From Cyanidioschyzon merolae (Eukaryota), in assembly GCA_000091205.1 (NCBI GenBank), contig AP006502.2: 64,000 nucleotides of DNA. The stretch is one strand, 5' to 3'. Positions 42,696 through 61,372 of this stretch are shown here, piece by piece. Within the stretch, counting starts at the first letter, position 1; every line of letters begins with the position of its first letter. Made by a program: the position numbers and the translations under genes. The notes under the pieces are model-generated. The model was not told the DNA's origin, did not search any database, and saw only the letters and a program-made list of their open reading frames with translations.

Positions 42696-45599
42696 ATGCA
42701 GGGCACAGACGTCCTGGTTCTGCTGCGGGTTTGGAACGCTGAACTCGAGCGAAACGCATCGTGGCTCACACAGCCTCAGGGTGCTCCGGCTGTACCCAAG
42801 TCGGAGGGTGAAAGTGTGGCTGCAGCTCACGCAAAGTACGGCTGCCGAGAACCGGGAGTACACGGCGTACAACGTTCGAGTGAAGGTTGTGGAACGCGGC
42901 CTGCGGAATTCCCGCGAAGGACGTGGCGGAACGAGTGCGGCGCGCTCGGTGGTGGTGGACTCGGGTCGGCGCTTACCACGGCAATCACGGAACAGAATGA
43001 ACGTAGTGAATCTGTGGTGTTTCAGCAAATCAATTCACAACGCCAGTCCGAGGGCTTGGCTCGGGTAAAAGCGGACTCGGGAACGCGTACGCGACCGGGG
43101 AAAGCTGCTACTGTTGCTGCAGCGACCAGTGGACGTCGCACGCCGCGTGCAGAGACTGAGCGTCTGACAGCGTACCAAGAGCTGAAGACTGAAAGCTATA
43201 CTTCCCCGAGCGCTACGCGAGTACCACTCTCCAGACAAATTTTGAGTGCATTGCGTAGCCATGTGAAAGCGATCCCGATGTCTGACGTTCATCGATCCCA
43301 TCGCATGAGATTTCTGCGCCTCTCCAGGGTGCCGCCATGCCCATTAAAGTGCAAGACAGAGGATCTACCGTGGAATATGGGCATCGAGAGAGCGCTTTGC
43401 ACGACCGAGTCCGGTTTGGTGATGCCGCCCGTGGAACCACGCGACAGGGAAGCATTGGGCAGCCCGGAACAGCGCTGGAACTCCAGCGAATCGTATCCTC
43501 CCTTGACATATCGCACGGTACGGGATCCCCAGGTACAAGAGCGATCCAGTTCTGTTGCTGATGCTCGTCGTCGAGTGGTACCGCCGCGGGCAGACTCTGC
43601 GGCGGAGTCGCCCGAGGGCCTCTGCGGTCACAGTGCGCCGCTTCTTGCGGATGATTCGAAGCCGTCTCGACGGGAGATTGCACCGGAGTCCTCGCATTTC
43701 CAGAGAGAGCGGATAGATTTCATCCACGAGTATAATGGTGCGCATGGTGTAGATGGAGCATGTGTCGGTGGCTGCCTTGGGCTAGAAAGAGCACGCGGCC
43801 ACGTGACTGTTACTGGAAGAGAGCATCCGGGGATTGCGCCTCGACCAATTCCTGGAGAGAACAACCCGTGCAAACGCCGCCGCATGGCGGATGACCTTGC
43901 GCAATCCAAATGTCACCGACTCGGAGACATGCTCGGTAATCGTTACCTCTTTATGGATGCCATGGACGCAGAATTGCCGCGGTACATCCTGCTGCTTCCC
44001 CTTTTGGCCCGAGTGTTGGCCGTATCGTGCCCCGGTCTCCACTGCGTGGTGCAGTTTCCGCTCAAGTGGCAACTGGATTTGGCCATGATACAGCGTTCGT
44101 GGTCCGTTGGAGAGGGAAACGCCGGTGATCGCTCGGGCACCATCACATCCCAAATCGAAGGAGAGAACCGGCATCGAGCGTGCGTTCCCAAGAGTTGTAC
44201 ACCGGGCATTTGGCGGGCGCCAAGCCAGCATGCAAGGGCACGAGGAGCAGCTGCACCAACCTGCAGTGCAAGACGATCAGCAGTGCCGCAGCCAAACGAT
44301 TCCGAACGCTCGCCGGACACGGCATCATTCCAAGAAGCGCTGATGAATGCTCTACTTTTACGTGGCTGGCAGCTGCTTGTATTGCCAGCCTCAGATTCGG
44401 AATCGCCACAAGCAGACACGGCAACACTCTCCCTCGCTCAGGTTCATCCACATAGCTGGCGGGTATCCAGTCTACAGGATGGCCAGCTGCTTAGCGGTTG
44501 GCGACGAAATGATGGAGCACCATGCGAGCCACCGTCTCGCTTGCCGTCTTCTGTGTGGAGGCGAGTTCAGAAATTACGCACACGAATCGGGGGCTTCGGC
44601 GCGGAGGTCTCGGCTCCGGACGCCGGATGGTCATACGCTTCGCATTCGAAGCACACCGGCATTCTGAGCTGTGATAATGTCGCTCAACATGTAAGGCCCA
44701 GCTGTGCCGACGACTTGAGATTCTACGTCGCGTACGATAACGGCTCGTCGGTAGAGCTGGTGACCTGCGCCGATCCAGTGCTCTACGGTGTGCGCAAATC
44801 CCGTGTGAACGGTTGCCAGCCAGTGCTGGTTTTTTGTTTCAATCAGCATCATGCTAGTATTGAGCTTGCCGATCTCGTGCTCCCGCTGACCGAAAGCGTA
44901 TATGCGCACGCTCCTGCGTGCGTACCACGTGCGACACGTTTGCCATCACAGCCTAGGCGGTTGCCTTCAAAGGGCATGCGTTCCCATGAGAATGTTCTTG
45001 TCGTCGATATTGGTGCACAACCCGTGGATATGCGGATGGCATTCGACGCCCATCGGGAATCGACTGCTTCGACGAAATCTTCCGCAAATTCGACTCCGTC
45101 TGAAGCGTTGATCACGGAAAATCCCGACACAGATACCGAAAGAAAGATGGAAACCGCTGCGGATCGTCAGAGTCCGTGTTTTAACGGCGATATACCATCG
45201 CGTGGAGGCCCCGATCTGCTCGACCCTGCACGTCGAGCGCAGAGCGCAGATCACGGTCCATTATTGGCCGCAGACGAGCGCCTCGACCATGCGCACATGG
45301 AACGTGTTCATTTTGATGGGAATCCCAACGAGGATGTGTCGGCAGTCGCGAGCGGACAAGAGTCCAGGCCTGTGCAGCCGCGCTCCGACCATCACCGCAG
45401 TTCTACGCAAGAGCACGATGCTGCGCTGCAGCGTACCTCTATGGACTCCCAGCGCGCCGTACCCCAGGCTCCAGATGTGCATCGAGCGCAACGAAGCACC
45501 GAGACCCGCTTTGAGCAGTCCACCGGCTGCGTCTACAAACCATCACTGGGCCAGGCGCTGAATGACACATTCACAACGTGCCGAATGCGACGCACCTGA
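42696..45599 (+). CDS. Hypothetical protein (967-aa ORF, largely low-complexity; no recognisable domain)
   Basis: It is the longest ORF in a 3-kb stretch with no competing gene on either strand. No motif was recognised by eye. GC-rich DNA also yields long spurious ORFs, so coding status is uncertain. Confidence 0.25.
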   Translation: MQGTDVLVLLRVWNAELERNASWLTQPQGAPAVPKSEGESVAAAHAKYGCREPGVHGVQRSSEGCGTRPAEFPRRTWRNECGALGGGGLGSALTTAITEQNERSESVVFQQINSQRQSEGLARVKADSGTRTRPGKAATVAAATSGRRTPRAETERLTAYQELKTESYTSPSATRVPLSRQILSALRSHVKAIPMSDVHRSHRMRFLRLSRVPPCPLKCKTEDLPWNMGIERALCTTESGLVMPPVEPRDREALGSPEQRWNSSESYPPLTYRTVRDPQVQERSSSVADARRRVVPPRADSAAESPEGLCGHSAPLLADDSKPSRREIAPESSHFQRERIDFIHEYNGAHGVDGACVGGCLGLERARGHVTVTGREHPGIAPRPIPGENNPCKRRRMADDLAQSKCHRLGDMLGNRYLFMDAMDAELPRYILLLPLLARVLAVSCPGLHCVVQFPLKWQLDLAMIQRSWSVGEGNAGDRSGTITSQIEGENRHRACVPKSCTPGIWRAPSQHARARGAAAPTCSARRSAVPQPNDSERSPDTASFQEALMNALLLRGWQLLVLPASDSESPQADTATLSLAQVHPHSWRVSSLQDGQLLSGWRRNDGAPCEPPSRLPSSVWRRVQKLRTRIGGFGAEVSAPDAGWSYASHSKHTGILSCDNVAQHVRPSCADDLRFYVAYDNGSSVELVTCADPVLYGVRKSRVNGCQPVLVFCFNQHHASIELADLVLPLTESVYAHAPACVPRATRLPSQPRRLPSKGMRSHENVLVVDIGAQPVDMRMAFDAHRESTASTKSSANSTPSEALITENPDTDTERKMETAADRQSPCFNGDIPSRGGPDLLDPARRAQSADHGPLLAADERLDHAHMERVHFDGNPNEDVSAVASGQESRPVQPRSDHHRSSTQEHDAALQRTSMDSQRAVPQAPDVHRAQRSTETRFEQSTGCVYKPSLGQALNDTFTTCRMRRT

Positions 45600-49960: not shown

Positions 49961-51665
49961 GGGAAAGGAGAGACGGGCGCATATCAATCCGGAGATAGGA
50001 GAGAAGCACAGGAATCAGTTGCAGAGAAATCGCGCAGTGGCTACTGTTGGCGACAATAAGAAGGCTACCCAACTTTCATGTATACGCCCGAGTCAAGGTA
50101 CCCGTTCCATTTTATTCCGTCTTGGATGTCTCGCAATGTCGAAATGTTTGCGCAGGGCATCGTCCGAATCGCGGTACTTTTGAAACCTTTATCTCATTAG
50201 AGCGCGCTGCTTGATTAAGATAAAACCTAGTCGACGTATCTTCCTATCGCATCTGACGAATTGCTGTATTGTTGCAGCCTCTCGCCCATAACAGCGCGAT
50301 TCTCGAGCGAAATAGACCGAGAACGCGCCGCCAGGAGAGCTGCGCTTTTTGCCCTGCGTACCAGAAACCGACTTTTCTTTCTACATTCTCCGACGATTCG
50401 CTGGATGGATCTGCCACCCATCGCATAGGCATGGATGGCGCTGCGAAGTATGGAATATAGAAGCATGTCCAAAAAAACTGCGGTTGCTTTCCTTCTGATC
50501 CTCGGAAGCGTTCACGCTCCCGTACAGTTCAAACGGCACATTTCAATCGCGTTGCGCTGAGCAGCGCGAGTCTGACACAGCGGCAGGCGCCGGTTTGCTC
50601 ACGAGTTTGTACAGAGCACGACGAAGAGCACGCTAGTGCAACTTTAACAGTCGCGAGGCAAAAACCGGGGTATGCGTATGCGCTGAAAAACACGGCTGGA
50701 GAAGTGTGAGCTGAACGGCCAAACAGCACGGCGAACAGGCCGCAGGGCTCGCTGGAGCCCCTGAACTACGCTACGCACTGGGGTCTCTTCCGTGCTCGCT
50801 GGCTACTTGGAGCGTACTTCCGATCGCTTTCAAGTCGTCGTTCAACCATCACTTACGCCCTACACGCTTAACTGGTGGTGCAGGCACCGGCGCGGCGCGT
50901 ACTGACCTCCGCAACGCGTACTGACCTCCGCAACGCGTGCGCTTATCGGCCTCGCCTCTGACGTGCGCTGCGTTCGGAGACATCGGAAAAAGCTTATCAC
51001 ACGCCGAGCTGATGCAGAGCTCCAACGAACCCGACGGCGCTGCGCTTCGAGCTCCGCGACCGCACTTTACGGCTCAGATTCTGTACAGTGTCCGACTGAC
51101 TACAGCAGGTCATGACGACGACGACGACGACGTCCCGACGCCACCAAAAAGTGACCAGATACGCGAAGCGCTTTCCCGAGTCGATGCCTTGCTGTCGCAG
51201 AAACCAACAACAAACGATACTGCACGGACTCGGTCAACGGAAACGTTTTCAACGCAACTGAACCAGGACAGGGTGACCCCCGAATACCTTGCTCAGCAAC
51301 GTAGGCGTCCTGCACAAGCATATGAGGAGGGTGCACCATGTCAGCGTGCTGAAAGCGTTGCTAGAGCGACACTCGCATCACCGTCGCCAAGCGCGACGGA
51401 TGCAGAAGGGCGGCGCGTCACGGCAGACCATGCGATGCTTTCGGCGTATGCGGCGTGGCGTGCACGAGAGCTTGCCCGCAAAGCTCGCGACGAGGCAGAG
51501 AGAGCCCATTTCCGACGACAACCGTAGCGCGTTTCCTCGTTTGCGTTGTTGCTGGTGGAGCGTCTCGCATGCTACAATGAAGGCATGTGCGGAGCGGTAC
51601 ACATGTTGGATCGCATGCAACGGCACTGGATGGTATGCTCGAACGCGGCGCACGCCCGGTGCCTC

Positions 51666-53003
51666 TCAAAGGAATAGTTGACGCACTTGGGCGTAAACTT
51701 CATCCACAGAGCGTTCTGCTGGGATGCGATGCACGCGCATGCGGCGTTCTAGAAACTCTATGACTGGCATGGTCGTCTCTATAAAAGTGCGAAAGCGCTT
51801 GCGAATAGATTCAGGATTATCATCGGTACGGCCGCTGCTGCGACTGCGCTGCAGGAGGCGGCGCTCCATTTCGGCTTCGGAACACTCGAAGAAAAGGCAA
51901 AAATCAGCGCGGCGGAGTAGACACTCAAAATCTATGGCTTGATCCAATGCACGAGGGAACCCATCGATCAACACACCAGGCACTGCGAGGGTGCTACCCG
52001 CATCAACTAGTTTCTTCCGTAAAAGTTCCAACGTGATATGACCGGGCACAATGGCGCCTTGGCGAATCATCTCGTCAATCAGCTGGCCCTGTTCGGACTG
52101 AGTCTGGATCTCAGCGCGCAGCAGATCACCTGCTGAAACATGCCAAAAACCAAACTCGGCGACGAGTCGGGCGCACTGGGTACCCTTGCCGGCGCCTGGG
52201 CCGCCGAGTACGAAAACCAACCGAGGCGGCAGACGCGCATGACCCTGCAACGAGGCAGCTTCCTGGAGGTACGCACCAAGCCACTCCAAGGGCTGCGCTG
52301 GCTGCGCCATACAAAGTCGGGATAATGCGGTCGTAAGCGTCTCTAGTACGGTGGAGCTCAAGTACGACTTTGCAGCGGAGCCTCCACCGGCCACTTGCTC
52401 GCCGACGACGCGCACTCGTTCGTATATGCGCTCCACTTCTGTTGCATCGTGGAAGCATTTCGCAAGATCACTCGTAATTTGCGTTACATCCCGACTGGTC
52501 CAGACCCCACAGTGCGCCTTATCCACGCCGAAAAGCGCACGAAGGCTTCGGGGCGCCAGGGCGCGGGCTTCAGCGGGGTCTACGGGTCCGCACAACTCGA
52601 GCCACCGTTTCCAGTCTGTCGCCGAAGTCTGCTCCAGAGGCGTTGCCTCTTCGTTCGACAGGAACACCATCTCGACAGGCGGAGTCGCTCTGCGAAGCAC
52701 GACGATCTCAGAACGCCCTTCACACAGCGCAGCGACGTGTTGTTCGTTGTGCACCTCATCGTCTGGGGCAGGCGTCGTGGTCTCGGCGGGCTCAGGTGAA
52801 AGCAGCGCACGCGCTCGTTCGGGCGTCCAGACGACGGTCTGCCGCGCAACCTCGGTCCAACCGTCTGTCTTTCGTGCGTACGCCAGAATCGGATCTTTTC
52901 GATAAAAAGCTTCCGGCTGAATAACGAGCAGCACAAAACCCGGCCAAGTCGTTCGTTGCGTCATATGCAGTGCAGCTTTGTGGCTGGAGCAGAAATACGG
53001 CAA
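51666..53003 (-). CDS. NME5-like nucleoside-diphosphate-kinase domain + Dpy-30 motif + adenylate/UMP-CMP kinase domain (flagellar-type multidomain nucleotide kinase)
   Basis: 445-aa ORF. The N-terminal region follows the NDK fold pattern: 'GFVLLVIQPEAF', 'WLELCGPVDPAEARALAPRSLRALFGVDKAHCG' (cf. LLGPTDP..A....SLRA.FG.D..NAVHGSDS). Then 'VLETLTTALSRLCMAQPAQPLEWLGAYLQE', a Dpy-30-like motif. Then a complete P-loop kinase: 'VFVLGGPGAGKGTQCARLVAEFGFWHVSAGDLLRAE', 'GAIVPGHITLELLRKKL', 'LIDGFPRALDQAIDFE'. Confidence 0.7.
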   Translation of the reverse strand: MPYFCSSHKAALHMTQRTTWPGFVLLVIQPEAFYRKDPILAYARKTDGWTEVARQTVVWTPERARALLSPEPAETTTPAPDDEVHNEQHVAALCEGRSEIVVLRRATPPVEMVFLSNEEATPLEQTSATDWKRWLELCGPVDPAEARALAPRSLRALFGVDKAHCGVWTSRDVTQITSDLAKCFHDATEVERIYERVRVVGEQVAGGGSAAKSYLSSTVLETLTTALSRLCMAQPAQPLEWLGAYLQEAASLQGHARLPPRLVFVLGGPGAGKGTQCARLVAEFGFWHVSAGDLLRAEIQTQSEQGQLIDEMIRQGAIVPGHITLELLRKKLVDAGSTLAVPGVLIDGFPRALDQAIDFECLLRRADFCLFFECSEAEMERRLLQRSRSSGRTDDNPESIRKRFRTFIETTMPVIEFLERRMRVHRIPAERSVDEVYAQVRQLFL

Positions 53004-53101: not shown

Positions 53102-53270
53102 AGCTATATCCCGTTTTGTACTGTATCGCATTCGCGCATCCCCGCATGCGCAGCGTGCATCCCCGGCATGTTGAGTTGATTCCTGAGATAGCTATATCCC
53201 GTTTTGTACTGTATCGCATTCGCGCATCCCTGCATGCGCAGCGTGCATCCCCGGCATGTTGAGTTGATTC
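53102..53270. repeat. Tandem repeat, about 88-bp period x 2
   Basis: 'agctatatcccgttttgtactgtatcgcattcgcgcatccc[c/t]gcatgcgcagcgtgcatccccggcatgttgagttgattc' occurs at 53102-53182 and 53190-53270. It lies in the divergent intergenic region between the NDK-AK gene and the LysM gene. Confidence 0.9.
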
Positions 53271-54634: not shown

Positions 54635-57010
54635 ATGTGGGTGGTCTTTGTGAATCAAGTAAGGCGCACGCATGATGGAATTGATGTATCGAGCCGTGGA
54701 CGCTGGTACTTAAATGCGAACAAGCTCCGGTGCAAGCGGGCTCGGTCGCTTGCGTATATGACTGTTGTTCGCAGCTTGCCACGGCCACCGGGCTTCTACG
54801 TGACGACGCAGGATGGTGACACGCTTGCGAGTATCGCGTCACGCTATGGCATTGACGCGAAACGTGTTTGGGAGCTGAATAACCGCGCTTCGCGTTTAGA
54901 GTTTAAGCGTGGCAAGTTCCCATTTCTCCCTGGTTTGAAACAGCACGAGGTTTCGAGGCAAGCGCCTTCAGGTGGCGTATCCCTAGAGGAGGCGCTGGAG
55001 CGGCCACTATGTTCTGGGCAACGCATCTTTGTACCGAATGAAACAGTTGCACAGACTGCAAAAGGCGGTAACCTCCATGGGGCTTCCTTGCGCCAAACGG
55101 CACCTCCAAAAACAGTCGAAGCACCTCCGGTTACCCGGACGTTTGTTCCTCCCAAGGCACAGACCACTCCGCAACAGAAATCTTCAGCAGCGATGGGTGC
55201 TCCATCCGCGCCACCGGCCAAGGGTGTCCCGGTTGTAGAGCAGCAGGCACTGCCGCCGTCACCACCATTACAGGGTACGCTCGTTGGCTCGGTTGGGACA
55301 ACGGATTTCTTCCTGGGCGTCTTCGCGGTGCTCGTTGGATTTTATTCGGCGAAGATGATGCTGCCGCGGTCGAATACCGAACCCGGAACGCAGCCAAAGA
55401 CCTCACTCCTAAAGGCCTTGTATAAGAGGCTCGTGGGCTTTCTACAGGCCATGATTACTGTTGCTGTTTTGATTGGGCTCGCGGCAGGCGCGCTAGGCGC
55501 TCGCCTCCGAGCGGCGCTGCTGTTCATCTTTAACGCCTGCACGATACTCTTACGTGGCGTATCGCAGATGATCGTCCTCTTCGGCCAGTTCATGTGCGGC
55601 ATGCTCGGTGTCGTGGCGCTTGCGGTTCAGGGTGTCGTTCAACTGTTCCAACGGCTTGCGCAGGCGGCATTCTTGCTGATCGCGTCGATTTTTTTGGTTA
55701 CGTGGCAGAGCGCGGTACGTCTCTGGTCGGCAGCCTCTACGCGTTCGAGCGCAGTACTAGAGAACATCACCCAGCGCGGGCTGTCACCATCGCTGCCCTC
55801 GGCGGAAACAGGATTGTGGTCTGTACCAGATGAGCGCTCTTCCTCCGTCGACCAGACGGCATCCGAGTCGTTCTTTGGGCTCATTCGGCAATTTTTCTCG
55901 CGGGATTCGGGAAGCGATCTCATTCGCTGCGTTCTTCGTGAACGCACCCAGATCTCGGACGCCTTCGTTCGAATGCGATTCGATCTTCCGGGACCCGACG
56001 ACCAGCTAGTTCTCCAGATGGGTCAACGCATCGAAGTGCATGTTCAGAAAAGCCGCCAAAGTCTCTGGAGTGACGTTCAGCCCCTTGATCAAGCGGAATC
56101 TTCTTGTGGGCTTGGAGCAATCAGGCCGCACCTGCTAGCGGTCGCCAGTGATCGCCATCAGCCTGGTAGCTTCGAGATCATAGTGCCCGTGTCGCACGCA
56201 CTGCAGCAAGTGCTTTGGGAAGCGAGCGACGCAGATAATGCGACGCATTCGGCTGCCGCTGCTCCAATGGACGCCGAGTACGATGGTGCTTTCAGTACAG
56301 GAAGCGATGTCCAGGTCCTGGAGCGGCCATCTACCTCCGACCACGTATTCTCGGCGACGTGCAGTGCAAACAATGACGAGTTCGACGAGCATTTCCTAAT
56401 CGCGCTTGAATCCCTTGTGGAAGGTGTTGATGCTATCCGCGTTCGACCAGCCCCGAATACGGAGCTCATCTACCGTCGCGCGATGAATCCCTCCGCTGGG
56501 ACCGTTGTGGTGCATAACGTTGTGCTCTTAGCATGCGGTCTGGGCATTGTATCCGCGGTGCGCATCGCCGACGAACTCCTACAAGACTCCGAGTCCGCGG
56601 TGAGCCGCATCACGCTAATCTATTATAACGAGCGCGCCCGAGATTTCATCCTCCTCGACGACTTGGAGCGCATGAGCAAAGACCATGGTGAGCGATTCCG
56701 CCTCCATTGTGTTTGGAATGAGAACGCTGGCGCGTACCTTGCCAGCACAGGATTCCCCCGAGCTGCAACGGCTTCCGCTGGTGCGGGTACAAGCGCAACC
56801 GTCGCTGCCGCCGCAGCCAGACGCAACGGCTACGGCCGTGAAAGACGCGCGGCACAGCCGGTGCCTGCTACCGTCCGGGTGATATCGGCCATACCAGCGT
56901 GGACGGAAGGTACAATGGCCATTATCAGCGGGAACGAGTCATTCTCCCAAGAAATGTGGTACGCCTTGGGGGACTCGGGTTACCCGGAGGACGCGATCAC
57001 CTTCATATAA
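54635..57010 (+). CDS. Multidomain membrane protein: N-terminal LysM, polytopic TM region, C-terminal FNR-like FAD/NAD(P)-binding oxidoreductase domain
   Basis: 791-aa ORF. LysM: 'YVTTQDGDTLASIASRYGIDAKRVWELNN'. About four hydrophobic helices lie between residues 230 and 370. C-terminal NAD-binding-like 'TVVVHNVVLLACGLGIVSAVRIADELLQDSE..RITLIYYNERARDFILLDDLERMSKDHGERFRL' (cf. cyt-b5-reductase MIAGGTGITPM...LLFANQTE.DILLR.ELE) and end 'MAIISGNESFSQEMWYALGDSGYPEDAITFI'. No His pairs typical of ferric-reductase heme domains were seen. The FNR call is moderate. Confidence 0.55.
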   Translation: MWVVFVNQVRRTHDGIDVSSRGRWYLNANKLRCKRARSLAYMTVVRSLPRPPGFYVTTQDGDTLASIASRYGIDAKRVWELNNRASRLEFKRGKFPFLPGLKQHEVSRQAPSGGVSLEEALERPLCSGQRIFVPNETVAQTAKGGNLHGASLRQTAPPKTVEAPPVTRTFVPPKAQTTPQQKSSAAMGAPSAPPAKGVPVVEQQALPPSPPLQGTLVGSVGTTDFFLGVFAVLVGFYSAKMMLPRSNTEPGTQPKTSLLKALYKRLVGFLQAMITVAVLIGLAAGALGARLRAALLFIFNACTILLRGVSQMIVLFGQFMCGMLGVVALAVQGVVQLFQRLAQAAFLLIASIFLVTWQSAVRLWSAASTRSSAVLENITQRGLSPSLPSAETGLWSVPDERSSSVDQTASESFFGLIRQFFSRDSGSDLIRCVLRERTQISDAFVRMRFDLPGPDDQLVLQMGQRIEVHVQKSRQSLWSDVQPLDQAESSCGLGAIRPHLLAVASDRHQPGSFEIIVPVSHALQQVLWEASDADNATHSAAAAPMDAEYDGAFSTGSDVQVLERPSTSDHVFSATCSANNDEFDEHFLIALESLVEGVDAIRVRPAPNTELIYRRAMNPSAGTVVVHNVVLLACGLGIVSAVRIADELLQDSESAVSRITLIYYNERARDFILLDDLERMSKDHGERFRLHCVWNENAGAYLASTGFPRAATASAGAGTSATVAAAAARRNGYGRERRAAQPVPATVRVISAIPAWTEGTMAIISGNESFSQEMWYALGDSGYPEDAITFI

Positions 57011-57577: not shown

Positions 57578-60500
57578 CTAGGAATGCGTTCGAGTGGGCG
57601 GCATCGCTGCCCCATTGTTGCCGCGCGGCGGAGAAGAAGCCATCTGCTCGAGCGCTTCAAGCTCCGCTACGGTGTTCACGCCCTCTAGACGCCAGAGAAG
57701 ACCGCTTTCTTCACGAACACAATAAACATCGACGTCATAGCCACAGTCCACTGCCATCTGAACGAGATCAGTGGCGTAGTATTCGAAGCGCTCAGGTACA
57801 GGACTCGAACTGCGCACCCGCTGGTTGCCTTTGTCGACTCGATGCGGTAGCGACGCTGCAAGGAGCTGCATCGAAAGCGCACGATCCACCACCATGATGC
57901 CGGAGTAGAATTCTCGAATGGCCAGGATCTGGGCGCCGTCTGGTCGCTGCAGGGCCTCGCGATACTCCACAATGGCGCGCAGGGCGCCGCTCTGGGCGTC
58001 GCGAACAACGCGTCCATAGGCGCCCGCGTCTCTGGACGTATAGCATCCGCTCAAAATGACGCCGAACGTCTGCGATGGCCCGTTTGGATGGGCCGCTGCC
58101 TCACGCTGACGGCTTCGTTGATCTAGCAGTGGTTCCAGAATCGCAGAATCTACCCCTGGATTATCGCCGTAGAGCACGAGTATGTCACCGGAGAACGTCG
58201 AAAGCGTCGAGCACAGGGCCGCATAGAGGGCGTGGCCGGTCCCGAGCGGCTGGCTCTGGCGAACCAGGAGGTACGGGAGCGCGTCAAGCGCTGTTCGGAT
58301 AGCGCCTTCGACAGACTCGTTGCCGACCACGACAGTCGGTATTCCCATGGTGTGGAGCGTCTCCACCACATGTCGAAGCATGGGTTTGCCACAGAACGAA
58401 TGCACGACCTTGGGGTACGCAGCGCGGAACCGAGTACCTCGTCCCGCGGCGAGCACGATACCGACCACAGCAGCACTTTGGAGTTGCGCTTGCCAGGCGG
58501 ATGCTGGCCCCAACTCGCCAGCGTCTGCCTCAGCCAAAAGCGCACCAGCTACTTCCAAATCGCCCAATCTCGAGGTTTCCGCCAGGCGAATGCCGAATGA
58601 ACCACTTTCAAGGTGTCGGAGTTCATTCTCTGACAGCGACGTGGCCACCTGCTCCAAGATTTGTCGAAGCCGCGACCGCAGCAGCCTTTCTAGCCGACGG
58701 GCGAGCGTTTTGGCGACCTCACCCTCCAGGGCGGTTGAACTGACTTCCACGCGTATCCGCCAGAACGGCTGTGTGCGCGACGGACGTACCAGCACGCTCA
58801 CAGCGTCCTCAATCGACACATCTGGAAATTCCAGCTGAATCCGTTGTAGTTGCTCATCGATGAGGGCCGTTTGCACCCATTCCGGATCTAAGACGCGAGT
58901 TTCGTCTGCAGTGTAGCGCCAGTTTGCTGCGGCGTAGCGACTCGCCTGGCGCAGAAGCGGTGTTTCCATGTCATGCTCTGTGAGCTGCGCGTTCACCACT
59001 TCGCTGTGTCCAGCCGAAGCAAACACCTCTAAACGTTCTAATAAATGCGTGACTGGCTCCGTACGAAGCAGCGCCTCCATCGTAAGTAAGGTGGCAACGC
59101 CGTCGCTGCCCGCGGGGTTCGCCAATCGCGCCAACGATACGATGCATTCAGCAGCGTACCGCGCTTCCCGCGTCAGGGGCGTGCTCACGTCCCGCAACAA
59201 CAACTCGTAGAGCTGACGCTGCACCAGAGGTGCCACGTAACAACCAACATGTCCATTCGGCTCGGCATAGACGGCGAGATTAAAGCAGCGCTCGACGATA
59301 TCGCGGCCGTACTGAGCGCCTGTGGGCACCAGCACCAGGTTGCCATCGCAGAGCGCACGGATTCGCTCGCGATACACACGTCTGCAGTAAGCTGTTAGCG
59401 CACAGCCGAACGATAGTCGGGGCAGTACTTGTATGGGTGTAGTTGTTGTTTCCGGGGCCGCCACGAGCAACTGGACGCAGCGGCGCAGGAATGCAACCAA
59501 ACAGAGCGCTATCCAGTCACCGTCGTAGACTACGATGGATGAAATCGATGATGCCTCTTTCGTTCGACCCGCTGAACGCTGCTCGGATGATGCGTAGTAG
59601 ACCAGGCGATCCGCATCGCCGTCCAGAGCCGCCATGCGGTCGCCCGACACGAGACAACGGAAGTCATCGCCGTGTCCAGCGTGCTGGTGGATGTACTCAG
59701 CCCCGCAGCGCTCGTTCACGGCCTGCGACTCCTCATGTCGATGCGTCGTGCTCAGCGGAAACGATAATAGCGATGATACCTCCGCAAGCACCACCGAAGC
59801 TGATCCATATGCGCAATCAACTCGAAGTCTCGTCGTCGAGTCGACTGCGCCCGATCCAGTCACCTCGGGATCCCGTTGCAGCGCTCGACAAAGCGCATGG
59901 TACCCTTTGACGAGCCGTTCGTGGACATAGGCATCAAAGGTACTCAATCGTCCATTTTGCGATGCCCAGACTGCGTACTGCGTGAATGGTGTGGTGGTGA
60001 GGCCCAGATTTCGCACCCCCGAGCACTGCGTCGCTCGTAGCAAGACTTCTAAAGCTACCTGTGCGAGACGAGCGGAACTCGGACGATTGTCGTAGCCGAG
60101 GATGACGACACCACCGCGCCCGGACTTGTCGTCGATGCTTGAGCCTGCCGCTCCCGGGAGAGTCGCGGTTTTCTCGGCGGCGGCCGGTTCCCTGCCATGA
60201 AGCATTCGATGCGCTAGGCGGTGGAACAGGGAACCAAGAGCCACAGCCCTCGGTGCATGAATCGGTACCGTCAGCGTTTCCACGTTCATTCCGTCGAAAG
60301 AGTCGTTATTCGCGGAATCTGTTGGTGGTGCCAGCGTCTCCTGCAGCAGGTCTGCGAAGAACTCTCCCAGCAAGGGGTGCGGCGTATCCTGGAGGTGCGC
60401 TTGCAACAGACCCCCGTCGCTGCGCACAACCTTGACGCCGTTCTCACTTGACGGGTTGTGGGAAGCAGTTATCATCAGGCCCAGTACACACTTTCGAAAA

Positions 60501-61372
60501 GAAGCGACCAGCGCGACGACAGCTGCGGCTCGGGCGACAACAGCGTCCAAAGCGGGTCCGTCGCGTACGCGGACGCCTGCACCGGTATAACGCACGGCTT
60601 CTGTGAGCGGGTATCGATTGGAAAGCCAGTTTGCGAGCTCGTGAAAGGGATAGGGAGAAGCATCGGTCGTGTTTAGACATTGACCGGCTTCGGAACGTTC
60701 CCCTAACGAGCAGAGCGTGGCACGTCCGACACCGCCAGCGAGCTTGCAGGGTCGCAACCGCACGCTGCGAGGCGGTGCGCGACCACGGAGCCTAGTTTGG
60801 TGCCTCGTTATAGGACGAAGCTGAGGCGAAACCGTTCGTCGACTTGCAACCAGGGCCAAGTCAGGGACCAGGCCGCTTGCCCCGAACATGAAGTGTACTC
60901 GGTGCGAAAAATCGATGGCGAGCGTCATCGCCTGTGCGCACAAGCTCACTGGCGATGTTCGCTTAGGACCCGTCCCGTTCCGAATAACTTCCTGTTGGGT
61001 TCCGCATGAAAGATTTCCTGCTGGACGCTGTGATCTTCGTTGTGTCGAGAGGGTTCCGTGGGAGCTTGGACTTTGGGTGCAGTTATGGAATACGGAGACC
61101 AGTGGGGCTATGCATAGACCCCTGCAAACAAGTGCTGAGCATTTCCAGGAGGAATCGTATGCGCGCGCAGTCTGTTGCAGGTTCGGTGGACGCCCATTCG
61201 TGGTCAGCGCTTTCTCGGGTATGAGTAGCGTCGCATGCTGCCCGTTCGCCCTTGTTGAAGAGCCGGAACTCGACACGCGAGGAAGCGTCGACTCAACGAT
61301 GGATCCGATTGTTCTGAAAACGTACATATATGTACAATGGACAGATCGCTGTACTGTAATGCGTGCGCGCAC
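57578..61372 (-). CDS. Fusion protein: phosphoacetylglucosamine mutase (AGM1/PGM3-type) + GlmU-type N-acetylglucosamine-1-phosphate uridylyltransferase domain (no acetyltransferase LbH domain)
   Basis: 1264-codon uninterrupted ORF. AGM1 part (about residues 240-900): 'RYTGAGVRVRDG', phospho-Ser loop 'GLMITASHNPSSENGVKVV', 'ERCGAEYIHQ', 'ALDGDADRLVYY', 'YDGDWIALCLVAF', 'AVYAEPNGHVG', 'SVLVRPSRTQP'. C-terminal part (about 935-1230): 'VGIVLAAGRGTRFRAAYPKVVHSFCGKPMLRHVVETL', 'RQSQPLGTGHALYAAL', 'GDILVLYGDNPGVD', 'DAGAYGRVVRD', 'EYYATDLVQMAV', 'LEGVNTVAELEALEQM', which is the GlmU N-terminal nucleotidyltransferase fold. The first 150-240 residues of the track ORF may be 5' read-through; alternative starts are near 60928. 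Confidence 0.8.
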   Translation of the reverse strand: MRARITVQRSVHCTYMYVFRTIGSIVESTLPRVSSSGSSTRANGQHATLLIPEKALTTNGRPPNLQQTARAYDSSWKCSALVCRGLCIAPLVSVFHNCTQSPSSHGTLSTQRRSQRPAGNLSCGTQQEVIRNGTGPKRTSPVSLCAQAMTLAIDFSHRVHFMFGASGLVPDLALVASRRTVSPQLRPITRHQTRLRGRAPPRSVRLRPCKLAGGVGRATLCSLGERSEAGQCLNTTDASPYPFHELANWLSNRYPLTEAVRYTGAGVRVRDGPALDAVVARAAAVVALVASFRKCVLGLMITASHNPSSENGVKVVRSDGGLLQAHLQDTPHPLLGEFFADLLQETLAPPTDSANNDSFDGMNVETLTVPIHAPRAVALGSLFHRLAHRMLHGREPAAAEKTATLPGAAGSSIDDKSGRGGVVILGYDNRPSSARLAQVALEVLLRATQCSGVRNLGLTTTPFTQYAVWASQNGRLSTFDAYVHERLVKGYHALCRALQRDPEVTGSGAVDSTTRLRVDCAYGSASVVLAEVSSLLSFPLSTTHRHEESQAVNERCGAEYIHQHAGHGDDFRCLVSGDRMAALDGDADRLVYYASSEQRSAGRTKEASSISSIVVYDGDWIALCLVAFLRRCVQLLVAAPETTTTPIQVLPRLSFGCALTAYCRRVYRERIRALCDGNLVLVPTGAQYGRDIVERCFNLAVYAEPNGHVGCYVAPLVQRQLYELLLRDVSTPLTREARYAAECIVSLARLANPAGSDGVATLLTMEALLRTEPVTHLLERLEVFASAGHSEVVNAQLTEHDMETPLLRQASRYAAANWRYTADETRVLDPEWVQTALIDEQLQRIQLEFPDVSIEDAVSVLVRPSRTQPFWRIRVEVSSTALEGEVAKTLARRLERLLRSRLRQILEQVATSLSENELRHLESGSFGIRLAETSRLGDLEVAGALLAEADAGELGPASAWQAQLQSAAVVGIVLAAGRGTRFRAAYPKVVHSFCGKPMLRHVVETLHTMGIPTVVVGNESVEGAIRTALDALPYLLVRQSQPLGTGHALYAALCSTLSTFSGDILVLYGDNPGVDSAILEPLLDQRSRQREAAAHPNGPSQTFGVILSGCYTSRDAGAYGRVVRDAQSGALRAIVEYREALQRPDGAQILAIREFYSGIMVVDRALSMQLLAASLPHRVDKGNQRVRSSSPVPERFEYYATDLVQMAVDCGYDVDVYCVREESGLLWRLEGVNTVAELEALEQMASSPPRGNNGAAMPPTRTHS

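Follow-up and report, generated by a model that had tools for sequence, protein, structure and literature searches.

A three-domain kinase gene

The window analyzed here is a 64,000-nucleotide stretch of Cyanidioschyzon merolae DNA (contig AP006502.2), and our subject is a minus-strand kinase gene in it whose product joins a nucleoside diphosphate kinase (NDK)-like domain, a Dpy-30 motif and a nucleoside monophosphate (NMP) kinase domain in one chain. The gene is already annotated and is a lineage-specific variant of the known Nme5-like family; the previously unreported point is that NDK catalytic residues appear to be lost throughout the class Cyanidiophyceae while the fold is retained under selection. 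The minus-strand open reading frame (ORF) 51666..53003 was confirmed in the window, and its translation carries all four peptides quoted in an earlier reading of the same DNA, the original prediction (SLRALFGVDKAHCG, LSRLCMAQPAQPLEWLGAYLQE, GGPGAGKGTQC and LIDGFPR). That reading counted 445 amino acids from an upstream in-frame TTG. Starting from the ATG at 52964 instead, the complete, intronless coding sequence occupies 51666..52964 and specifies 432 amino acids plus a stop codon (51666-51668), as indicated by exact sequence look-up and ortholog alignment. The 13-codon in-frame leader from TTG to ATG (52965..53003) lies outside the annotated protein, and the ortholog alignment starts at MTQR/MTAQ.

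The 432-residue product matches exactly BAM83101.1 / XP_005539137.1 / UniProt M1UXC5 from C. merolae 10D, named "probable uridylate kinase" in the database and encoded on a 1.62-Mb contig. From this exact match we take the window to be nuclear DNA of this unicellular red alga, and its GC content of ~57% and intronless ORFs are consistent with that origin; the match rules out the trypanosomatid host that these two features might also suggest. The Cyanidiococcus ortholog has the same length, start and end, with no insertion or deletion relative to the C. merolae protein. A literature search for work specific to the C. merolae gene found none.

The features of the gene described below all lie on the minus strand. 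Residues 248-432 (51669..52223) form a URA6-type UMP-CMP/adenylate kinase domain, with the P-loop GGPGAGKGT at 52179..52205 identified from the translation and the alignment. The domain matches PF00406 (ADK) at 137.7 bits (E=4e-40, cut-off 26.8) and the UMP-CMP kinase family TIGR01359 at 211.2 bits (cut-off 207.6), while the adenylate kinase (AK) isozyme-1 equivalog aden_kin_iso1 stays far below its cut-off (195.9 vs 284.1). Its top solved relative in a search of the PDB is yeast URA6 (1uky), at 190 bits; human CMPK1, the Dictyostelium UMP-CMP kinase and AK1 all score ~160 bits, about 30 below URA6, and each of the four top matches is a UMP or UMP-CMP kinase. The motif SAGDLLR is that of UMP kinases, where AK1 has STGDLLR. 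Across the family alignment no variation occurs in the P-loop, SAGDLLR, LIDGFPR or the LID Arg/Asp cluster, with invariant columns at G254-T262, R283, R338, R373, R379, D381, D382 and R390, which include the NMP-site and GFPR arginines. With all its catalytic motifs present, the C-terminal domain is a short-LID NMP kinase that has stayed intact, and yeast URA6 is its nearest match.

Upstream of the kinase domain, beyond a short linker (residues 237-247, 52224..52256) where the predicted local distance difference test (pLDDT) score dips to 64-69, lies a Dpy-30 helix-loop-helix dimerisation/docking motif (residues 198-236, 52257..52373). It matches PF05186 at 39.9 bits (cut-off 22, E=3e-10), and AlphaFold2 models the segment as two helices, 196-220 and 225-239. 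Between this motif and the NDK fold is a segment of an extra helix and a Gly-rich linker (residues 174-197, 52374..52445), the helix being predicted at 174-192. In the alignments this segment is common to Cyanidium, the sequence P0012 and Cyanidiococcus, and is missing in Galdieria and other red algae.

Residues 1-173 (52446..52964) form an NDK-fold pseudo-kinase domain, as indicated by a sub-threshold Pfam match, a phmmer search of the PDB, AlphaFold2 and Foldseek. The match to the Pfam NDK profile (PF00334) scores 15.8 bits, short of the cut-off of 27 (E=0.013), and covers only profile positions 81-132, its last third. When residues 1-197 alone were searched against the PDB, NDK-family chains made up 17 of the 18 matches at E<=10 and all ten of those below E=1e-4, the top one being FAP67/NME7 (E=8e-12). 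The AlphaFold2 model of residues 1-240 has a mean pLDDT of 84.9, and Foldseek places it closest to NME5 of human, bovine and mouse origin and to Chlamydomonas RSP23, in radial-spoke cryo-EM maps; dozens of NDK crystal structures come next (template modelling score ~0.8, root-mean-square deviation 2.5-3 A). In the full-length model (pLDDT 84.8) there are three separate folded units, with confidence dipping at the linkers and the lineage-specific inserts, those of the NDK-like domain lying at about residues 60-68 and 93-118. On these matches and models, together with full-length collinear orthologs whose NDK domains reach 152-155 bits, the assignment of the N-terminal domain to the NDK fold is well beyond chance, despite the failed Pfam threshold. 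The original prediction had proposed this same order of domains, NDK-like, Dpy-30 and AK-family kinase, and had staked it on an NDK-fold match within residues 1-200 and a Dpy-30 match after them. Pfam, the PDB searches, the models and the fold matches bear that order out, and both of the matches at stake are present.

Catalytic residues and selection in the NDK-like domain

A homology search gave 38 collinear three-domain proteins, every named member of which is a rhodophyte. The architecture is found in Cyanidiococcus (71% identity), Cyanidium caldarium (55%), Gracilariopsis, Gracilaria, Rhodosorus, Purpureofilum and Porphyridium, and later look-ups found it in Porphyridium purpureum and Galdieria phlegrea as well. 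Identity to the C. merolae protein is 55-71% among cyanidiophytes and 36-46%, over 94-95% of the query, for most non-cyanidiophytes, among them the named proteins of florideophytes, Rhodosorus and Porphyridium; six non-cyanidiophyte members align over only ~70% of the query. A protein of this kind from Chondrus crispus, the NDK, Dpy-30 and ADK protein Nme5-likeCc, has been characterised biochemically (Perina et al. 2019, Mar Drugs 18:13, PMC7024210). It keeps all nine essential NDK residues; its nucleoside diphosphate kinase (NDPK) activity was measured at 273 U/mg, it assembles into a multimer larger than 250 kDa, and it binds DNA non-specifically. Perina et al. argue that the three-domain form is ancestral; their paper makes no mention of C. 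merolae or the Cyanidiales.

We scored the nine essential NDK residues, along with Ser123, across the 38-sequence alignment. Where the reference pattern has K14, Y52, F60, R88, T94, R108, N118, H121, S123 and E132, C. merolae has Q16, L55, H72, L122, V128, R142, C152, W155, S157 and D166. Thus only one of the nine essential residues is kept (Arg142, corresponding to R108), together with Ser157; seven are replaced outright, and the change of Glu to Asp166 is an eighth. The original prediction had left open the fate of the catalytic His, and the answer is that it is lost. Its position (His118 in NME1, His121 in the Chondrus protein) is occupied by Trp155, encoded by the TGG codon at 52500..52502 and placed by the model on predicted strand beta4 (residues 154-156). 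Separate pairwise alignments also put Trp155 on the catalytic His of NME7 and FAP67.

The catalytic His is kept in all 33 non-cyanidiophyte fusion proteins in the alignment, and 32 of these have the full ten-residue pattern wherever the position is present, the exception being P0088, which keeps the His with Y52, F60 and T94 changed. In the six cyanidiophytes examined, the His is invariably lost, being replaced by Trp (C. merolae, Cyanidiococcus and P0003), Val (P0012), Tyr (Cyanidium) or Phe (Galdieria phlegrea). Since the His is missing from Galdieria to Cyanidioschyzon, catalytic loss appears to characterise the whole class Cyanidiophyceae. The Pfam NDK score falls stepwise, from 152-155 bits in Gracilariopsis and Rhodosorus to 72 in P0012, 54 in Cyanidium, 19.5 in Cyanidiococcus and 15.8 in C. 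merolae. The Cyanidium-Cyanidioschyzon branch gained a loop of ~24 residues after beta3 as well as the extra helix before Dpy-30, and an additional 9-residue insert arose in Cyanidioschyzon and Cyanidiococcus; none of the three is in Galdieria. Taken together, the alignments and models indicate that the NDK domain is a pseudo-kinase, which keeps its fold without its catalytic residues.

Partial decay of the NDK half is also seen, independently, in other, unassigned lineages, in P0088 and in P0314, where the NDK His is changed to Tyr and the P-loop is altered to GNAGSGKGT.

We asked how far the domain is constrained by comparing codons with the Cyanidiococcus gene (432 codons, no indel). In the NDK-like domain the proportion of nonsynonymous differences (pN) is 0.25, against a saturated proportion of synonymous differences (pS) of 0.73; in the kinase domain the values are 0.08 and 0.84. 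Amino acid identity is 59% in the NDK-like domain, 72% in the Dpy-30 motif and 85% in the kinase domain, and of all the segments the linker of residues 237-247 has the highest pN. The NDK-like domain has evolved ~3.5 times faster than the kinase domain (nonsynonymous rate, dN, 0.31 vs 0.086). Omega is not quantifiable, because the synonymous sites are saturated. The excess of pS over pN nevertheless argues clearly that the dead NDK domain is still under purifying selection rather than drifting neutrally.

These figures bear on the suggestion that the N-terminal 200 amino acids have no function and persist as a tolerated, decaying relic in front of an essential kinase. The faster rate, the disordered inserts and the missing catalytic residues are what such a relic might look like, but a pN so far under a saturated pS, with no indel or stop codon between two genera, is not. 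Nor is 59% identity, as neutral drift at such divergence would erase similarity. The fold is also confidently predicted, and the domain is present in every cyanidiophyte lineage examined. We consider a mere relic to be improbable.

Proposed function and alternatives

The C. merolae Nme5-like ortholog is probably a cytosolic UMP/CMP(/AMP) kinase, dimerised by Dpy-30 and carrying a pseudo-NDK scaffold. In this scheme the kinase domain would catalyze ATP + NMP <-> ADP + NDP in the cytosol, acting on UMP and CMP and possibly AMP, and two chains would pair through a Dpy-30 four-helix bundle. The dead NDK domain would no longer be an enzyme but would help with oligomerisation, scaffolding or regulation, and a separate NDK would supply the step from NDP to nucleoside triphosphate (NTP). 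The NDK and Dpy-30 module would have been inherited from an ancestor shared with axonemal NME5/RSP23, and may have outlived the loss of the flagellum because it was fused to a housekeeping kinase. More tentatively, the former radial-spoke-type NDK may have become, in the Cyanidiophyceae, a pseudoenzyme that works with Dpy-30 to assemble or allosterically regulate the UMP/CMP kinase of the cell, for instance by sensing nucleotides or by acting as a scaffold, with catalytic loss as a class-defining trait; we regard this as speculative.

Several points weigh against the proposed function. The input alignment for AlphaFold2 included intact NDK orthologs, and the fold evidence depends partly on them. 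Synonymous sites are saturated throughout (pS 0.73-0.88), leaving only the contrast of pN with pS as usable, and the cytosolic location is suggested solely by the lack of an N-terminal extension. As for substrate, the TIGR01359 score lies just 3.6 bits over the cut-off; the residue that discriminates between bases, four positions past the Arg of GFPR, is Gln, as in URA6 and AK1, where human and Dictyostelium UMP-CMP kinases have Asn; and Perina et al. (PMC7024210) placed the Chondrus kinase domain with AK1/AK5.

These last observations might suggest that the C-terminal domain works mainly as an adenylate kinase of the AK1/AK5 type (AMP + ATP <-> 2 ADP) and not as a UMP/CMP kinase, the more so as AK1 scores only ~30 bits below URA6, and as URA6 itself acts on AMP, CMP and UMP (PMC13397275). 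The family profiles point the other way, TIGR01359 being passed and aden_kin_iso1 far short, as do the four top PDB matches and the presence of SAGDLLR in place of AK1's STGDLLR. We therefore find a chiefly adenylate-specific enzyme rather unlikely. Because of the Gln residue and the broad range of URA6, we use the broad label "URA6-type UMP/CMP(/AMP) kinase".

The original prediction also envisaged a relay in which the two kinase domains carry out successive phosphotransfer steps, from NMP to NDP and on to NTP. By the canonical NDK mechanism this is excluded for the C. merolae protein, given Trp155 and the replacement of seven of nine residues. It may plausibly hold for the other red-algal orthologs, in which the key residues are kept and, in Chondrus, NDPK activity was measured; the NDK of the Nme5-like protein would still be active in red algae other than cyanidiophytes, making two successive steps possible. 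One could still imagine the C. merolae protein making NTPs from NMPs, either through non-canonical transfer by the degenerate NDK or through an NDP-kinase side activity of the AK-type domain. Arg142 and Ser157 are still present, and Perina et al. note that AK5 and several NMP kinases can phosphorylate NDPs and leave unresolved which domain lies behind the Chondrus activity (PMC7024210). Set against this are the substitutions His→Trp, Lys→Gln, Tyr→Leu, Arg88→Leu, Thr94→Val and Asn→Cys. NDK catalysis needs a phosphohistidine intermediate, and four different replacements at the His position among six cyanidiophytes suggest loss rather than a new mechanism. Residual NDPK activity of this protein accordingly seems doubtful to us.

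As NDK and Dpy-30 together make up the architecture of axonemal proteins, the protein was originally read as a sign that its host builds cilia or flagella. An axonemal nucleotide-relay protein, docked in the radial spoke or central pair by Dpy-30, would account for a module collinear with NME5/RSP23 and for top fold matches that are radial-spoke chains, and related NDK-Dpy-30-ADK units do occur in the flagellates Ancoracysta twista (387 amino acids) and Vitrella brassicaformis (1536 amino acids). The host, however, is C. merolae 10D, which is non-flagellate and lacks dyneins (PMC2239267), and no red alga bears cilia at any stage of its life (PMC7503314); the flagellar inference fails on these grounds. 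The gene is also conserved across the Rhodophyta, in which flagella are absent throughout, leaving an axonemal function, or a ciliated host, with next to no likelihood. An axonemal role in C. merolae is refuted for this organism by its aflagellate, dynein-less state. More generally, the "flagellar" combination of NDK, Dpy-30 and AK is no proof of cilia, conserved as it is throughout the aflagellate red algae.

Apart from the NDK loss, the gene is an annotated housekeeping kinase. What the cyanidiophyte sequences add to the published Nme5-like story is a selected pseudo-NDK in extremophilic Cyanidiophyceae, as opposed to an active NDK in mesophilic red algae. This amounts to a natural loss-of-function series, which could help to assign the Chondrus NDPK activity to a domain and to define any non-catalytic role of the NDK fold. 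Such questions can be addressed in C. merolae, which is open to genetic manipulation. If the pseudoenzyme does assemble or regulate the UMP/CMP kinase, a ciliary module would have been re-used for core metabolism after the flagellum was lost.

Gene neighbourhood and relationship to known systems

Gene order around the kinase gene is mirrored in Cyanidiococcus yangmingshanensis, where a PGM/NTP-transferase gene, a LysM protein gene, the kinase gene, PAP_fibrillin and Ribosomal_L1 occur together. The divergent neighbour in the window (54635-57010, plus strand) encodes 791 amino acids, with a LysM motif near the N-terminus and a weak match to FAD_binding_6, and a LysM-containing protein occupies the syntenic position in Cyanidiococcus. 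Between it and the kinase gene, ~140 bp upstream of the kinase ATG, is an intergenic tandem duplication of an 88-bp unit (53102-53270; 1.9 copies, 98% identical), possibly a promoter element that has been duplicated. A perfect 19-bp tandem repeat, CGCGTACTGACCTCCGCAA, in 2.3 copies (50896-50938) lies on the downstream side of the kinase gene. Farther along, an uninterrupted minus-strand ORF of 1264 amino acids (57578-61372) carries PGM_PMM_I and AMG1_III domains (phosphoglucomutase / phosphoacetylglucosamine-mutase) and a C-terminal MobA-like NTP-transferase domain, and may unite two successive reactions of sugar-nucleotide synthesis in one fused protein; the matching Cyanidiococcus neighbour is called as a 533-residue NTP_transf_3 protein only. 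Two plus-strand ORFs, 50937-51527 (196 amino acids) and 42696-45599 (967 amino acids), matched nothing in Pfam at E<=0.001. The positional counterpart of the latter in Cyanidiococcus is a 952-residue gene product, likewise with no Pfam match.

Beyond the fusion family, the nearest named relatives of the kinase protein are the group II NDKs NME5 and NME7. A profile of the N-terminal module matches human NME5 end to end (positions 3-187, 205 bits) and matches RSP23 too; along with NME5 and RSP23 as top fold matches, this sustains the kinship with axonemal proteins that had been proposed for the NDK and Dpy-30 module. Because NME5 and NME7 have similar per-domain scores, the module is assigned to NME5 on the basis of the Dpy-30 architecture that they have in common and of the work of Perina et al. 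An exhaustive profile search found an intact three-domain protein of 387 amino acids in the flagellate Ancoracysta twista and, in Vitrella brassicaformis, an NDK-Dpy-30-ADK unit inside a multi-kinase protein of 1536 amino acids (CEM33191.1), the unit being matched in one stretch in both proteins (profile positions 3-378). This supports the view that the NDK-Dpy-30-ADK fusion is older than the red algae.

Complete NDK-(Dpy-30)-ADK units were seen in proteins of 1200-1700 amino acids (P0250-P0262, P0286/P0394, P0313, P0325 and P0371), with up to three NDK and up to five ADK domains. Apart from the Vitrella protein, these multi-kinase sequences derive from metagenomes and transcriptomes of marine origin; all are presumably flagellar proteins of protists.

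Among known systems, the closest is Chondrus Nme5-likeCc, an ortholog from the same phylum with the same domain order in a single chain of ~380-430 amino acids; Gracilariopsis and other florideophyte members are likewise collinear with the C. merolae protein over its full length. Chondrus differs in having the nine NDK residues intact, where C. merolae retains Arg142 alone of the nine and has three inserts besides. The axonemal NME5 of human, mouse and bovine and Chlamydomonas RSP23/NDK5 share with the C. merolae protein a group II NDK followed directly by Dpy-30. Unlike the C. merolae protein, NME5 has no C-terminal NMP kinase domain and resides in radial spokes, which are absent from C. merolae, and both NME5 and RSP23 have the catalytic His. 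Yeast URA6 (1uky/1ukz) resembles residues 248-432 in its P-loop, SAGDLLR, LIDGFPRxxDQA and SGRxDDN motifs, but is a single domain of ~200 amino acids lacking the NDK and Dpy-30 module. The Vitrella-type protist proteins are mostly 1200-1700 amino acids long, with several NDK and ADK copies, intact NDK motifs and flagellated hosts, in all of which they differ from the C. merolae kinase.

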